UHGV virus genome: UHGV-0106859
Strand: one strand, 5' to 3'
DNA: 17,837 nt
DNA from: a virus
Notes under the pieces: model-generated
The model's database searches: none
Told to the model about the DNA's origin: nothing
Seen by the model: the letters and a program-made list of their open reading frames with translations, nothing else
Part shown: one piece after another, positions 1-3,597 of the stretch
Position numbering within the stretch: the stretch's first letter is position 1
How the letters are laid out: every line of letters starts with the position of its first letter
Position numbers and translations under genes: made by a program

Positions 1-21
1 ATTGGCTGTAATGTCTGTCAT
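1..21 (-). CDS. Tailspike (gene 9-like) N-terminus, partial: only the first 7 codons (MTDITAN) lie inside the window
   Basis: Minus-strand ATG at 21-19 preceded by GGAG (ctGGAGcaaattaaATG); encodes MTDITAN, which matches the conserved N-terminus of P22-family tailspikes as I recall it; position after ant matches P22 gene order. Truncated by the window edge. Confidence 0.45.
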
Positions 22-78
22 TTAATTTGCTCCAGATACAAGGAATCGCCGCAGCGTAGCTACGGTGAATTTTGGGCA

Positions 79-102
79 TAAAAAAACCCAGCCGAAGCTG
101 GG
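79..102 (-). terminator. Rho-independent terminator downstream of ant
   Basis: Hairpin CCCAGC-cgaa-GCTGGG (87-102) followed on the minus strand by a run of 7 T then AT (plus-strand A-run 79-86); lies about 20 nt after the ant stop codon (122-124). Confidence 0.6.
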
Positions 103-121
103 TCGTTGCGTTGGTTATCTG

Positions 122-1045
122 TCAGTAGTTATGTACTGAAGGAGGCAATTCTTTATTCTTAAGTCTCATCCATGCGGAAAGATTCGTTGGTCCGTCTGGC
201 TCATTAATATCAACATCTCGTGTGTGGTTTATTAAAACGTCTCTCGCCATTCCGATAACATACGAGAATTCATGACCATAGTCGTAGCATCTGCCTGAAT
301 AGTTCGATTGAATTTGTTTTAGCGCCGGATACAGTTCGCGGAATAATGCCTGTGAGCGGTTGGCATAATCCCATAACCATACAAGGCTGTTTGCTTCTTT
401 TGCAGAAAGCTCGTTGGTTTTCTTCTCTTGTTTGCCGATGAACTCACCTTCAAGTGGAACTCGAGCTGCAAGTGATAGTGCTTCGGTAAACTGCTCCTCA
501 CTGATTTCTTTGTACGAACATCCAAAATGGGATTTCAGTGACGACCACATGGTGATCATCGCCTTAGCCTGTTTTTCCTTTGGCAGAGACTGACCGCGAC
601 TCATGACGAGTTGTTTAATGGCTTCCTGCTGTTCAGTGGTGATTTTACCCGGCAACGCCTTTTTAGCTTTGCGTGGGTTAACTACATGACCTTTAGTCCA
701 GTACTCGTATAGCACATCGTCACACTCTTCTTGATACTGGATTACATTGTCGCGGATTTCAGGGCGGACTTTGTTAGGGCTGATGGTTTGCAACCAGCCA
801 TTCAGTTTACGTAAAGCAAGGCAAATCATGTTCTGCACACCGCCAACTGAAGGTATTGCGATTTCCACAATACCTTTAGCAAATCTTTGTTTTAACTTTG
901 TAAACTGTGAAGCCCAATCCATACCCATTCCCTCAACGATAGGTTTCATTGGGGTGTACGGCTCACCGTTGTGATTAACAACATAAAGCTCTGCGCCGTG
1001 GAATGGTACATTGATAGTAGATACTGCTGTTGCTATACTTTTCAT
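122..1045 (-). CDS. ant: Antirepressor (Ant-like; N-terminal AntA/AntB-type domain)
   Basis: 307-aa ORF; N-terminal region (VPFHGAELYVVNHNGEPYTPMKPIVEGMGMDW...) resembles the phage antirepressor N-terminal domain; sits in the immI-like cluster downstream of an Arc-like gene and opposite mnt; ATG start with GGA about 8-11 nt upstream. Confidence 0.75.
   Translation of the reverse strand: MKSIATAVSTINVPFHGAELYVVNHNGEPYTPMKPIVEGMGMDWASQFTKLKQRFAKGIVEIAIPSVGGVQNMICLALRKLNGWLQTISPNKVRPEIRDNVIQYQEECDDVLYEYWTKGHVVNPRKAKKALPGKITTEQQEAIKQLVMSRGQSLPKEKQAKAMITMWSSLKSHFGCSYKEISEEQFTEALSLAARVPLEGEFIGKQEKKTNELSAKEANSLVWLWDYANRSQALFRELYPALKQIQSNYSGRCYDYGHEFSYVIGMARDVLINHTRDVDINEPDGPTNLSAWMRLKNKELPPSVHNY
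1011..1039 (+). promoter_or_regulatory. Near-consensus sigma70 promoter inside the 5' end of ant, reading antisense (Psar-like)
   Basis: TTGATA (1011-1016), 17-bp spacer, TATACT (1034-1039) on the plus strand; predicted start near 1046, immediately past the ant start codon and antisense to the ant ribosome-binding region. Confidence 0.45.
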
Positions 1046-1120
1046 GTCGTTAATTCCTATGCGTGGTTTTACGATACCGAAGCCCTGACTGTTACCGCAG
1101 TTGGGGCTTCAACTTTCTGC
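1046..1120 (+). ncRNA. Candidate sar-like small antisense RNA (about 70 nt) covering the ant translation-initiation region
   Basis: Starts downstream of the promoter at 1011-1039; contains a 13-bp stem with 6-nt loop at 1079-1110 that is stronger in the plus-strand RNA (two G-U pairs that become A-C mismatches on the other strand), followed by CUUUCU. Size and placement resemble the sar RNA of phage P22 immI. Confidence 0.35.
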
Positions 1121-1312
1121 TCTATCAGTTATATCTTTCCCTTCATATACTTCACCTATATTGCTAATGCTGGCAGAACATCCAAGATGCTTGTATCTTA
1201 TGATGTCCAACACGCAGTCACTACACAGCATCCGACCTGTTTCTTTAGAGTAAATGTATGTTTGATCAGCGTCTGATTCGCTAATGCCGCAGAAACAACA
1301 TTCTTTACTCAT
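1109..1312 (-). CDS. Small cysteine-rich protein (67 aa; CCxC near the N-terminus and CxxC at 30-33; possible zinc ribbon), hypothetical
   Basis: ORF start ATG overlaps the stop of the upstream Arc-like gene (ATGA overlap at 1309-1312), suggesting translational coupling; purine-rich SD (AGAGAGGGG) upstream; occupies the slot directly upstream of ant. Confidence 0.5.
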   Translation of the reverse strand: MSKECCFCGISESDADQTYIYSKETGRMLCSDCVLDIIRYKHLGCSASISNIGEVYEGKDITDRAES

Positions 1313-1449
1313 ACCGTTATCCCCTCTCTCTTCAGGCTGTCCATCACCCGTTTAATTACTTCTGCACTAAATGAGCGACACTCTTCCTTTGCTTTCTCTT
1401 CAAGGATTTTTTCTAACTTCTCTGGCATACGCAGTGTTTTTACCTTCAT
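1309..1449 (-). CDS. Arc-like ribbon-helix-helix repressor (46 aa), below the 60-aa cutoff of the supplied ORF track
   Basis: Hand-translated: MKVKTLRMPEKLEKILEEKAKEECRSFSAEVIKRVMDSLKREGITV; the C-terminal helix (RSFSAEVIKRVMDSLKREG) resembles P22 Arc (RSVNSEIYQRVMESFKKEG as recalled); GGAGG SD 6 nt upstream of the ATG at 1449; first gene of the minus-strand immI operon. Confidence 0.65.
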   Translation of the reverse strand: MKVKTLRMPEKLEKILEEKAKEECRSFSAEVIKRVMDSLKREGITV

Positions 1450-1548
1450 TGCATCCTCCGTTGTATGTGGTACGCATACATAGTATTTAGGTACGCATTG
1501 ATAGTCAATAGATACCTACATATCCTGTGGTAAAAAATTATTCAGGAT
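1450..1548. promoter_or_regulatory. Divergent promoter/operator region between the Arc-like operon (minus) and the Mnt-like/mnt operon (plus)
   Basis: Minus strand: TTGACT (1508-1503), 17 bp, TACTAT (1485-1480). Plus strand: TTGATA (1498-1503), 17 bp, TATCCT (1521-1526). The two -35 boxes overlap within the palindrome ATTGA-TAG-TCAAT (1497-1509). Direct repeats GGTACGCAT at 1469-1477 and 1490-1498 (21-bp period) and an imperfect palindrome GTATG-n7-CATAC (1463-1479). Confidence 0.45.
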
Positions 1549-1554
1549 GTGCCG

Positions 1555-1812
1555 ATGTCTGATCGTAAGTACAAAAACCCTCAAGTGAATCTGAGGCTTC
1601 CTGTAGAGATAAAGGAACGTCTTATTGAACTGGCTGAGGCTAATTCTCGTTCATTAAATGCTGAGATGGTCGCGGCACTTGAAGCATGGACCGAAAAAAA
1701 TAAACACATTCAAGCACTAGACCTTGCAACTATAGCATCACGATTGATAGATCTTGAACATGATGTTGAGAAGTTGAAATGCATGTATAGCAACAATAAA
1801 GACGAAAGTTAG
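1555..1812 (+). CDS. Mnt-like ribbon-helix-helix DNA-binding protein (second RHH repressor, about 85 aa) with C-terminal coiled-coil extension
   Basis: N-terminus (QVNLRLPVEIKERLIELAEANSRSLNAEMVAAL) has the RHH beta-strand/helix pattern; track ORF begins at GTG 1549, but ATG at 1555 has an AGGA SD 7 nt upstream; immediately upstream of and co-directional with mnt. Confidence 0.65.
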   Translation: MSDRKYKNPQVNLRLPVEIKERLIELAEANSRSLNAEMVAALEAWTEKNKHIQALDLATIASRLIDLEHDVEKLKCMYSNNKDES

Positions 1813-1835
1813 AGATACTAACTTGGAGTGATGGC

Positions 1836-2087
1836 ATGGCTAGAGACGATCCGCACTTTAACTTCCGTATGCCTATGGAAGTAAGGGAGAAATTAAAATT
1901 CAGGGCGGAGGCGAATGGGAGATCAATGAACTCCGAGTTGTTACAAATCGTCCAAGATGCTCTATCAAAACCATCGCCTGTGACTGGATATCGCGACGAT
2001 GCAGAACGACTCGCTGATGAGCAGTCAGAGCTTGTTAAGAAGATGGTGTTTGATACGCTGAAGGATTTGTACAAAAAACCCACCTGA
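1836..2087 (+). CDS. mnt: Mnt repressor (ribbon-helix-helix; P22 Mnt-type)
   Basis: 83-aa product MARDDPHFNFRMPMEVREKLKFRAEANGRSMNSELLQIVQDALSKP... is near-identical to P22 Mnt as I recall it; GGAG SD 7 nt upstream; orientation opposite to arc/ant as in P22 immI. Confidence 0.85.
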   Translation: MARDDPHFNFRMPMEVREKLKFRAEANGRSMNSELLQIVQDALSKPSPVTGYRDDAERLADEQSELVKKMVFDTLKDLYKKPT

Positions 2088-2098
2088 CGGTGGGTTAC
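2071..2098. terminator. Bidirectional hairpin terminator between convergent mnt and the accessory 355-aa gene
   Basis: CCCACC-tgac-GGTGGG (2079-2094) with an A-run upstream (T-run on the minus strand); the mnt stop codon lies in the loop; the minus-strand gene stop is at 2101. Confidence 0.5.
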
Positions 2099-2100
2099 TG

Positions 2101-3108
2101 TTACTTGTCTGAATCATCCAGTTCGTCTGTTTTCACATCCTCAAACCTTGGATGCAGGCGATTCATTTTTGCAATAAAATCTGAATAGTCGTTAGATAGC
2201 TTCATAATCGTAACGGTTGATGACAGATGCTCTCTTAATTTTTGATATCCAATATTTGGCGTCAGCCCCTGAAACAACTTTGTACCTTTTGAAGCCTTTA
2301 CGTTCTGCTTTTTAAGCTCCTCAAGGATGTTTGGTGCCAATCGCTTGTAGACGATATCATTTGTCAAAACGCCAAAATACTGAGGGCGGAAGCGGGGATT
2401 TTCCGGCGGGTATTCTAAGCCCCTTAACCTGAAAAGCTCTTCATAATAATCAGCCGGAAATGTTGTAATATAAGGTTGAATTTCCTTTGCGACAAAGGCC
2501 TCGAGTATTTTGGCGAGCGCATCTTTTTCTCTATCTCGCTGGTACCCCGTCGCTTCATCAACAAGCGCTATTATTCCGACTTTAGCTAATGAGCGCACCA
2601 GAATTTCAGCTTTCTTGGCTGTCTCTAACTGGTTTGGCCTGGTGATAGCGCCTGCCTCTCTTGCCTTTAAATAAACATCGCAAACAAGAGGTATTATGGA
2701 TGCGTCATAACCTTCTTGGACGGAGCCAGTAATCGTCTTGTATTTAACCTTATTGATCACATCCATAACATCTTGATTTATATATTTTTTAAGGTTTGCA
2801 GCATCCATAAAAGCGGGCATATTGATCGCCCCCTCTTCTTGAGGTGCTCTACCCCCTCTTTGTGGTCGGCCAAATGCTTTAAAAACAGAAGCTTGTGATA
2901 TGATACGCCGTCCATTTTCGAGAACCGCGACATCTAATTCCGCATCACCGATCTTTAACTTTCCCTCATTCGCAGATACGGGCAATAAAGCTTTTTCTTT
3001 TTTTGCGGCAACAGCCTTTCTTGAGGATTCTTTTCTTTGCTCTGCTGTCATTTTTGCCGCGCGTGCCTTACCGCCTTTGGCCTTCCCACTAACATCATCA
3101 TTTTTCAT
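2101..3108 (-). CDS. Accessory (moron) protein of unknown function, about 335 aa, with a lysine/arginine-rich N-terminal tail; possibly a P63C-type phage domain (unverified)
   Basis: Long minus-strand ORF (track 2101-3168, but that start is a TTG inside an operator-like palindrome; first plausible ATGs at 3114/3108 with weak SD). AT-richer than the flanking structural genes. Lies between gene 16 and mnt, the slot where P22 carries sieA. Confidence 0.65.
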   Translation of the reverse strand: MKNDDVSGKAKGGKARAAKMTAEQRKESSRKAVAAKKEKALLPVSANEGKLKIGDAELDVAVLENGRRIISQASVFKAFGRPQRGGRAPQEEGAINMPAFMDAANLKKYINQDVMDVINKVKYKTITGSVQEGYDASIIPLVCDVYLKAREAGAITRPNQLETAKKAEILVRSLAKVGIIALVDEATGYQRDREKDALAKILEAFVAKEIQPYITTFPADYYEELFRLRGLEYPPENPRFRPQYFGVLTNDIVYKRLAPNILEELKKQNVKASKGTKLFQGLTPNIGYQKLREHLSSTVTIMKLSNDYSDFIAKMNRLHPRFEDVKTDELDDSDK

Positions 3109-3148
3109 GAGCATATCTCGTGTTGTGATTGATAAGTCAATCATACAC

Positions 3149-3186
3149 ATGCACGTTGTAACGTGCAATATTTAAATATGCACGTA
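3149..3186. promoter_or_regulatory. Operator-like palindrome cluster upstream of the accessory gene
   Basis: Perfect 18-bp palindrome TGCACGTT-GT-AACGTGCA (3150-3167), perfect 12-bp palindrome ATATTTAAATAT (3168-3179), and a third TGCACGT half-site (3179-3185); possible minus-strand -35 TTGCAA at 3194-3189. Confidence 0.5.
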
Positions 3187-3267
3187 AATTGCAAATCAGA
3201 TAATGAGGAGACTTTCTCCCCCTTGCACTGACATCATGGTATTCTGCTCAAAACTAAGGAGGTTGGT

Positions 3268-3597
3268 GTGTTAGAAATAGTCGTACTCGCTCTTGGGATA
3301 TCCTGTTGCGTACTATATGCAGGGTTAGCTGCCCTCAAGAAACAGGTTAAGGAATTAGATCGCTCACATGAAATTGATACAAAAATTGCGCGATTAACAG
3401 AAGAGAATAAACACTTAAAAAATTCCATAAGGGCACTAACTGATGACAACTACAAACTGTCCCATGCATTGGCTAAGTGGGAAATAGTAAGTTATGAAAG
3501 AATGACCGACATGATTTTTTCGTCTTATATGGCTACAAAATCTCCTGAAACATCAGGAAAAGCAATAATTGCAGCCATTGAAAAGAGAATTAAATAG
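3268..3597 (+). CDS. Small membrane-anchored coiled-coil protein (109 aa), hypothetical; candidate superinfection-exclusion or accessory factor
   Basis: GTG start with a strong SD TAAGGAGG 5 nt upstream (3255-3262); N-terminal hydrophobic segment LEIVVLALGISCCVLYAGLAAL, then a charged helical region; AT-rich; convergent with gene 16 and divergent from the 355-aa gene. Confidence 0.7.
   Translation: MLEIVVLALGISCCVLYAGLAALKKQVKELDRSHEIDTKIARLTEENKHLKNSIRALTDDNYKLSHALAKWEIVSYERMTDMIFSSYMATKSPETSGKAIIAAIEKRIK

Follow-up and report, generated by a model that had tools for sequence, protein, structure and literature searches.

A variant immI module in a P22-like phage genome, with a resident Mnt-type repressor followed by a P22-type mnt gene that has neither its promoter nor its operator

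Two Mnt-type genes in a variant immI module

The DNA analysed is a stretch of 17,837 nucleotides (nt) of UHGV virus genome UHGV-0106859, here called the window, which begins in the opening codons of a P22-type tailspike gene (MTDITAN, read from the reverse complement of positions 1-21). Positions 122-2096 are a variant of the immI module of P22-like phages, with a specificity differing from that of P22. The leftward operon consists of arcL, orf67 and the antirepressor gene ant, together with the antisense RNA sar; the rightward operon, separated from arcL by an intergenic region of 105 nt, consists of two genes for repressors of the ribbon-helix-helix (RHH) type, mntX (1555-1812) and mnt (1836-2087), and ends in a single terminator. 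The original prediction, made from the letters alone, described two RHH genes placed head-to-tail on the plus strand, the downstream one near-identical to P22 Mnt including its N-terminal DNA contacts and the upstream one a distinct RHH protein with a C-terminal coiled coil of its own, and suggested an orphaned Mnt as one possibility. All of this agrees with what was found: both products match the Pfam Arc family, 81 of 83 residues are shared between the downstream protein and P22 Mnt, the upstream protein shares 15 of 36 RHH residues with the downstream one and has a predicted C-terminal helix, and the downstream mnt is orphaned, having neither the mnt promoter (Pmnt) nor the mnt operator (Omnt).

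The module resembles the immI region of P22 in its location between a DNA-transfer gene and the tailspike gene, in its divergent operons, and in the possession of an Arc-like first gene, a sar RNA, an Ant homologue and a repressor of Mnt architecture that is transcribed away from ant. It differs from P22 in that its operators and both of its promoters are unrelated in sequence to those of P22, the DNA-reading strand of its resident repressor is of the Q-N-R type rather than H-N-R, an additional gene (orf67) lies between arcL and ant, and the true P22 mnt occurs solely in second place, without a promoter. Among the closest known systems is that of coliphage CUS-3 (CP000711), which has the same tandem and the same junction and is 94% identical at the nucleotide level over window positions 1-2062, but carries a diverged mnt allele (83.8% amino acid identity) with another tail, no terminator hairpin and other downstream cargo.

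In the 2007 CUS-3 record, ECRS218_0005 and ECRS218_0006 are both annotated as "mnt", and the tandem was thus already in GenBank; arcL, orf67 and sar are present there within an annotated "boundary sequence", with arcL and orf67 themselves unannotated. The epsilon34 paper, which drew the "ant morons" of P22-like phages, remarked that CUS-3 seems to be without arc and so must control ant differently. That remark is due to the missing annotation of the arc-like gene, and the view of CUS-3 as an arc-less phage is corrected by arcL, the E. coli copies of which are annotated as an Arc family protein by PGAP. No description of stacked Mnt genes, of their junctions or of the control core described below was found in the literature, in a search that had most subscription journals outside its reach. 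The tandem itself is therefore known from the annotation of CUS-3; here it is re-read as an immI of another specificity joined to a P22 Mnt without an operator.

MntX, the control core and the leftward operon

The MntX protein (85 amino acids; Pfam Arc PF03869, 3.3e-10) is encoded by an open reading frame that could begin at 1549 or 1555; the ATG at 1555 is taken as the true start because the homologues all begin MSD/ERKYK. Pfam gives no match of MntX to the Repressor_Mnt family (PF11423). The AlphaFold model (mean pLDDT 77) nevertheless predicts the plan of Mnt, an RHH head with a long C-terminal helix: an extended N-terminus is followed by helices at residues 17-29, 34-48 and 57-82, and the best fold matches in the PDB are Arc-operator complexes. 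MntX has 141 homologues, and across 37 members of the family residues R4, Y6, K7, P9, Q10, N12, L13, R14, L15 and P16 are invariant. The original prediction had proposed a different operator specificity for the upstream gene, and the reading strand, Q-N-R in MntX versus H-N-R in Mnt, bears this out. The family profile matches the reading strand of Arc, especially that of the variant Arc FV10 (KMPQVNLRWP versus KNPQVNLRLP), so that in the model MntX looks like an Arc head on a Mnt body. Knight and Sauer reportedly engineered Arc/Mnt hybrids in 1989, and MntX resembles a natural version of such hybrids and of Arc FV10 (PDB 1BDV, 1BAZ), with a KxPQVNLRxP strand on a Mnt-like body that has a C-terminal helix. 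Arc FV10 was crystallised on the arc operator, whereas no copy of the P22 arc operator is present in the control core of the window.

MntX and the downstream Mnt are not products of a recent duplication, a question raised by the original prediction, which called the upstream gene a paralog. BLASTP aligns the two proteins over 36 RHH residues only (42% identity), the alignment ending at residue 43; no sequence relationship links their C-terminal helices, and each gene has its own homologues in different phages. They belong to different immI lineages that were joined by recombination at a single shared breakpoint, where a leftover of a third type of mnt is found. Nor is the upstream gene the extra RHH layer that the original prediction suggested: it stands alone in phage SEN22, which has arcL, the same control core and an mntX 84% identical to that of the window with no second RHH gene, and in most of its E. 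coli carriers, leaving the P22 Mnt as the extra. The core and mntX occur together in 141 of 5426 complete E. coli genomes, in 45 of these as the tandem and in about 96 with mntX alone. A species-wide genome scan and exact-protein look-ups located the trio of arcL, core and mntX in eight more genera (Arsenophonus, Phlomobacter, Xenorhabdus, Photorhabdus, Chimaeribacter, Shewanella, Morganella and Klebsiella). Loci with mntX homologues keep a divergent arcL and, usually, a downstream antirepressor-type gene, the latter identified as P22_AR_N where Pfam data exist and by translation of open reading frames at other loci. In the window, CUS-3, SEN22, E. coli and the other genera sampled, mntX is transcribed divergently from arc-ant beside the control region, with one exception in Xenorhabdus sp. 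PB62.4 (locus L011), where a transposase fragment (about 2600-3000) stands in place of the core's left half, the arc-like gene and ant, so that only the core's right half and the repressor gene are left. From its sequence context, MntX appears to be the primary, cognate maintenance repressor of a distinct and widespread type of immI, and would be expected to occupy the conserved core, so that ant stays silent in lysogens.

Two other identities for these genes were considered and rejected. A type II toxin-antitoxin pair does not fit, as both genes encode RHH DNA-binding proteins, no toxin domain is present, and FitA-like matches are secondary to those with Arc. The name "partition protein ATPase", found in RefSeq phage records and as the PHROG label for Mnt, is a misnomer for RHH proteins of 83-85 amino acids that match no ATPase family.

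The control core (1462-1522) is predicted to contain the operators and both promoters; 43 of its 61 nt are invariant in 13 loci from 10 genera. Its nucleotide identity is 84-97% in lineages whose neighbouring repressor gene reaches 57-68% and whose leader reaches 38-63%. A noncoding core that is better conserved than the gene next to it, together with a DNA-reading strand that never varies, is characteristic of a promoter-operator block and its cognate repressor. An imperfect palindrome at 1462-1480 (TGTATGTG-GTA-CGCATACA) covers the predicted start of the leftward (ant) transcript and sits relative to the leftward promoter as Omnt sits to Pant in the annotated P22 record. A second, nested palindrome at 1488-1518 (TAGGTAnnnATTGA-TAG-TCAATnnnTACCTA) is an inverted repeat with 18-nt arms, 78% complementary, that is centred on the overlapping -35 hexamers of the two promoters. 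The two palindromes are linked by a 21-nt direct repeat, of which two copies, each beginning GGTACGCAT, lie on the plus strand at 1469-1510 (76% identity, spacing 21). The direct repeats and the ATTGATAGTCAAT palindrome (1497-1509) noted in the original prediction are thus present as described; GGTACGCAT has just two copies in the window, at 1469 and 1490, where 0.28 would be expected, and two copies were reached in 9 of 200 shuffles. Heptad and TAG-box readings of the core yielded nothing convincing.

The predicted leftward promoter, equivalent to Pant, lies at 1480-1508 on the minus strand (TTGACT at 1508-1503, a 17-nt spacer and TACTAT at 1485-1480), and the predicted rightward promoter, equivalent to Pmnt, at 1498-1526 on the plus strand (TTGATA at 1498-1503, a 17-nt spacer and TATCCT at 1521-1526); each scored 9 of 12 in the consensus scan. 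They are face-to-face with overlapping -35 regions and fall on invariant columns, the leftward -35 being invariant and the rightward one almost invariant across genera; consensus matches in the region as a whole are not above chance (4 found, 5.3 expected). The P22 operators Oarc and Omnt have no counterpart in this control region, which is unrelated in sequence to that of P22. At position 1483, in the predicted leftward -10, G or T tracks the type of the ArcL strand (KTLRMP versus S/V-S-V-R-F/M-P) in 13 of 13 loci (comparison loci L003, L008-L015 and L021-L026), which may represent a single event, because the two groups are also two taxonomic groups. This difference is the one lead towards assigning elements of the core to MntX or ArcL.

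On the minus strand, the ant operon begins with arcL (1309-1449), which encodes an Arc-like RHH repressor of 46 amino acids (Pfam Arc PF03869, 2.9e-9); ArcL and P22 Arc share 38% identity over 39 amino acids. The next gene, orf67 (1109-1312), overlaps arcL by 4 nt, suggesting translational coupling, and encodes a small protein with a CxxC...CxxC motif that belongs to phrog_7150 (3.4e-50, function unknown) and has no match in Pfam; by eye, the motif presumably resembles the N-terminal zinc ribbon of ClpX. A 73-amino acid open reading frame occupies the same slot in phage 611R6, and P22 and SEN22 have no counterpart. The ant gene (122-1045) encodes an antirepressor of 307 amino acids (Pfam P22_AR_N, 3.2e-44; P22_AR_C, 5.7e-30) whose overall identity to P22 Ant is 57%, rising to near identity over the final ~115 residues. 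Opposite the start of ant, on the plus strand, sar (1047-1114) is full-length (Rfam RF00262, model positions 1-68 complete, 85.7 bits against a gathering score of 43, E 7.5e-18), and within the 5' end of ant is a Psar-like promoter (1011-1039, plus strand; TTGATA-17-TATACT with an extended -10 TG, 10 of 12 matches) in the position of the annotated Psar of P22. A full-length sar with its promoter inside ant indicates that the sar-ant part of the module is P22-like, whereas arc, the operators and the resident mnt are not. The sequence ATTGATAGTAGAT at 1010-1022 (plus strand), over the -35 of the sar promoter, has two mismatches to the central palindrome of the core, which is at chance level (0.48 expected).

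The P22-type mnt gene and the second position of the operon

The product of the second gene, mnt (1836-2087, plus strand), is a P22-type Mnt of 83 amino acids (PF03869, 3.9e-30, residues 2-51; PF11423, 7.2e-19, residues 53-80) that is 97.6% identical to P22 Mnt and 98.8% identical to epsilon34 Mnt. Its N-terminus, MARDDPHFNFRMP, is identical to that of P22 and unchanged in all eight tandem alleles; the operator-contacting residues of mature Mnt are Arg2, His6, Asn8 and Arg10. Homology with P22 and epsilon34 sets in 19 nt ahead of the ATG, immediately past the annotated Pmnt, and continues through to the terminator, so that mnt has kept only its ribosome-binding site and terminator. The leader (1817-1835, plus strand), ACTAACTTGGAGTGATGGC, contains the ribosome-binding site (GGAG, 1825-1828) and is identical in P22, epsilon34, CUS-3 and an E. 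coli prophage, with unrelated sequences 5' of it. No promoter-like site was found on the plus strand at 1527-1835, and no terminator-like site in the 23-nt gap between mntX and mnt; expression of mnt would therefore depend on read-through from the mntX promoter.

The operator is missing as well. Neither the 15-mer nor the 17-mer form of Omnt has a match with three or fewer mismatches in the window, and the best site at 1440-1560 has 8 mismatches in 17 positions, the value most often given by 121-nt pieces taken at random from the window; a cryptic Omnt in the control region is thus rejected, as the best match is no better than random expectation. The pattern was found once each in the P22, epsilon34 and UPF_BP1 loci, which served as positive controls. 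The statement in the original prediction that no canonical Mnt operator lies in the control region holds, and it extends to whole genomes: Omnt is absent, at the same threshold, from the complete CUS-3 genome (40.2 kb), and, again at up to three mismatches, from the complete prophage of E. coli VTB96816v, two stretches of which were searched from the tailspike gene to the integrase gene (about 62 kb around and including the prophage). The Omnt/Oarc region of P22 is present at 95% identity or more in 173 E. coli genomes, and there was no overlap between the 40 tandem genomes listed and the approximately 75 (about 42%) of these 173 that were listed, where about 17 overlaps would be expected if every tandem genome held an operator. 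At least one E. coli genome, ET245, has both X-type and P22-type immI.

A single, identical junction is shared by the window, CUS-3, an E. coli prophage and every one of the eight tandem loci that occur in the best 80 of 230 IMG/VR loci matching Mnt, indicating that the P22-type tandem arose once; the other 72 of these 80 are canonical, with Omnt upstream, and no first partner for P22 mnt was found among them beyond the canonical and X-tandem contexts. The junction retains, inside the 3' end of mntX (1799-1817, plus strand), a remnant of the 5' end of a third Mnt-type gene, mntY: AAAGACGAAAGTTAGAGATA (1798-1817) matches the mntY start of phage vB_EcoP-611R6, TATGACGAAGGTTAGAGACA, at 16 of 20 positions. 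In E. coli LI60C3, the same core and mntX are followed, with a 17-nt overlap, by a different Mnt-like protein of 83 amino acids, MntY, which has the reading strand APYSVRMP and is of the type that serves as the cognate, divergently transcribed Mnt of the canonical immI in 611R6. The 611R6 operators (ATCACCGTGA and GTGATTATCACGGTG) are quite different and are absent from the 5.4-kb LI60C3 locus that was read. Because the junction retains the start of mntY, an X+Y tandem came first, Y being replaced later by P22 mnt. In Arsenophonus, an independent second RHH gene follows mntX after 100 nt. Some apparently single mntX genes, as at locus L109 of E. coli strain 165 (557-808) and at locus L016 (2616-3108), end with the 3' end of mntY (...TLKTMYGKDAK) and look like the result of a deletion between homologous C-terminal codons of an X+Y tandem. 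By these comparisons, the second position of the operon appears to behave as a swappable slot for heterologous Mnt genes.

At the other end, a bidirectional intrinsic terminator (2077-2096, motif AAAAAACCCACCTGAnGGTGGGTT) overlaps the last codons of mnt. The same motif terminates mnt in P22 and epsilon34, mntX in SEN22 and mntY in 611R6, that is, genes of all three Mnt types, and it also encodes the K-K-P-T tail (L003, 2745-2775; L019, 2240-2262; window, 2066-2096). This common terminator probably serves as a recombination boundary. Eleven tandem loci contain eight mnt alleles, all intact, with four different C-terminal tails; across these loci mntX is 99.2-100% identical at the nucleotide level and mnt 81-100%. 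The window and CUS-3 alleles have a synonymous divergence (dS) of about 1.1 and a ratio of nonsynonymous to synonymous divergence (dN/dS) of 0.08. As the linked mntX has hardly diverged, the alleles must have been imported by recombination from canonical mnt genes, and the allele of the E. coli VTB prophage is visibly mosaic. Among the 11 loci read and the 40 PGAP-annotated tandem genomes listed, there is no disrupted copy of mnt.

In the window, the segment at 2054-3257 takes in the final 34 nt of mnt, the terminator, a gene with a P63C domain (2101-3108, minus strand) and the sequence upstream of that gene, and shows 99% identity to the nin region of Shiga toxin (Stx) phages (933W, BP-4795 and others); judging from this match, a cassette carrying a piece of mnt has been transferred between Stx phages and the ant moron. 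An open reading frame at 3268-3597 (plus strand), divergent from the P63C gene, encodes 109 amino acids with a hydrophobic N-terminus, weak Pfam matches of coiled-coil type and membership in phrog_8100 (function unknown). Elsewhere, the genes right after mntX vary by lineage: GmrSD_N and HEPN proteins are encoded there in Morganella (L023/L024, 1766-3252), and a ClpP-like protease gene directly follows mntX in E. coli MBT-5 (L018, 2867-3403); a Panacea-domain gene lies nearby on the opposite strand in L007 (21225-21668) and L018. The mnt operon looks like a landing pad for defence cargo expressed from the prophage.

Possible roles of the second repressor

By analogy with P22, there is an even chance that mnt is a trans-acting immunity gene against phages with a P22-type immI. 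MntX, the product of the phage's own immI, would hold ant off in the lysogen, and mnt, which recombination captured from the very first nucleotides of its leader onwards and which would be co-transcribed with mntX, would provide a repressor that binds Omnt on incoming phages with a P22-type immI and blocks their antirepressor. With the foreign Ant blocked, the resident repressor would not be inactivated, and the prophage would be spared induction or overgrowth. A job in trans is the most likely one for mnt because neither the phage nor, as sampled, its host carries Omnt, and potential targets are many in the same host species, as given by the 173 E. coli genomes with Omnt/Oarc. When P22 superinfects, its ant is turned off by the Mnt made from the prophage, and lysogens of phage L are overcome by P22 through Ant because phage L has no immI. 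The absence of a functional immI from phage L is also on record in the literature. The location suits a role in trans as well, since in other lineages the same operon holds other cargo expressed from the prophage right after mntX.

Several observations weigh against a function in trans. The 45 genomes and eight viral contigs with the tandem descend from one event, and many of the genomes represent one clone (the ST95/UTI89 group); the X+Y tandem is found in only one of 5426 genomes; and the second gene is easily lost, as in the strain 165 mntX that is fused to the mntY tail. The low dN/dS cannot be taken as proof of selection in the orphan context, since alleles have been exchanged with canonical loci and the signal may have been earned elsewhere. 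Expression from the prophage cannot be assumed either, because the mnt of the related phage Kapi1 went undetected when lysogen RNA was sequenced.

A less probable reading is that P22 mnt is a relic of recombination, a passenger of module shuffling at conserved boundaries (the leader and the terminator) that confers no benefit and is heading to loss. The single junction in all examples, the one terminator shared by all three Mnt types, which favours exchanges, the deletion derivatives and the majority of mntX carriers that do without a second gene are what such a relic would leave. A relic would not be expected, however, to lack disrupted copies among the loci read and genomes listed, to keep its DNA-reading residues invariant across eight alleles, or to retain an open frame after every one of its repeated allele replacements, and at least two types of Mnt, probably three, have occupied the slot. 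It is improbable that the P22-type Mnt acts in cis as an extra layer on its own control region, through a diverged site or in mixed oligomers with MntX, tuning ant or mntX-mnt: the inferred co-transcription with mntX and the match of AGGTACGC at 1489 to the Omnt half-site AGGTCCAC at 6 of 8 positions would fit such a role, but the best full-site match is the random-level one given above, the core is the same in phages with and without a second gene, and the C-terminal helices of the two proteins are not related in sequence, the BLASTP alignment stopping short of them. Least probable of all is a target resident in the same chromosome, whether the Omnt-controlled ant of a second prophage or a host gene; P22-type immI is common in E. 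coli, and at least one genome, ET245, combines it with X-type immI, but none of the 40 tandem genomes listed was among the Omnt genomes listed.

An immunity gene acting in trans would bear on the orphan mnt-like genes of phages L, ST64T and ST104, which have neither arc nor ant. The likeness is that of a Mnt-type repressor without an antirepressor of its own to control; the difference is that the mnt-like gene of those phages is their sole immI gene and is poorly conserved, whereas in the window a near-canonical P22 Mnt has been added to a complete immI of another type. In the literature, the orphan genes of L and ST64T have been attributed to "another function or a remnant"; action of the second Mnt in trans would explain them.

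More tentatively than for the single gene, P22-like and other temperate phages of the Enterobacterales may be collecting and swapping heterologous Mnt repressors without targets of their own in this slot of the mnt operon. A lysogen would then be immune to the antirepressors of several foreign immI types at once, by a repressor-based layer of defence with swappable specificity that is neither immC immunity nor an exclusion system. By means of antirepressors, one phage can awaken or override another, and the defence of prophages against foreign ones has been little studied outside P22. If the second Mnt works in trans, immI immunity would have at least three specificities in phages of E. coli and Salmonella, these specificities would be stackable in one operon, and the added gene would turn over by recombination. 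The 61-nt core, which hardly differs between E. coli and Shewanella and has as its partner a repressor with an Arc head and a Mnt body, offers a natural system for the study of operator recognition by RHH proteins.

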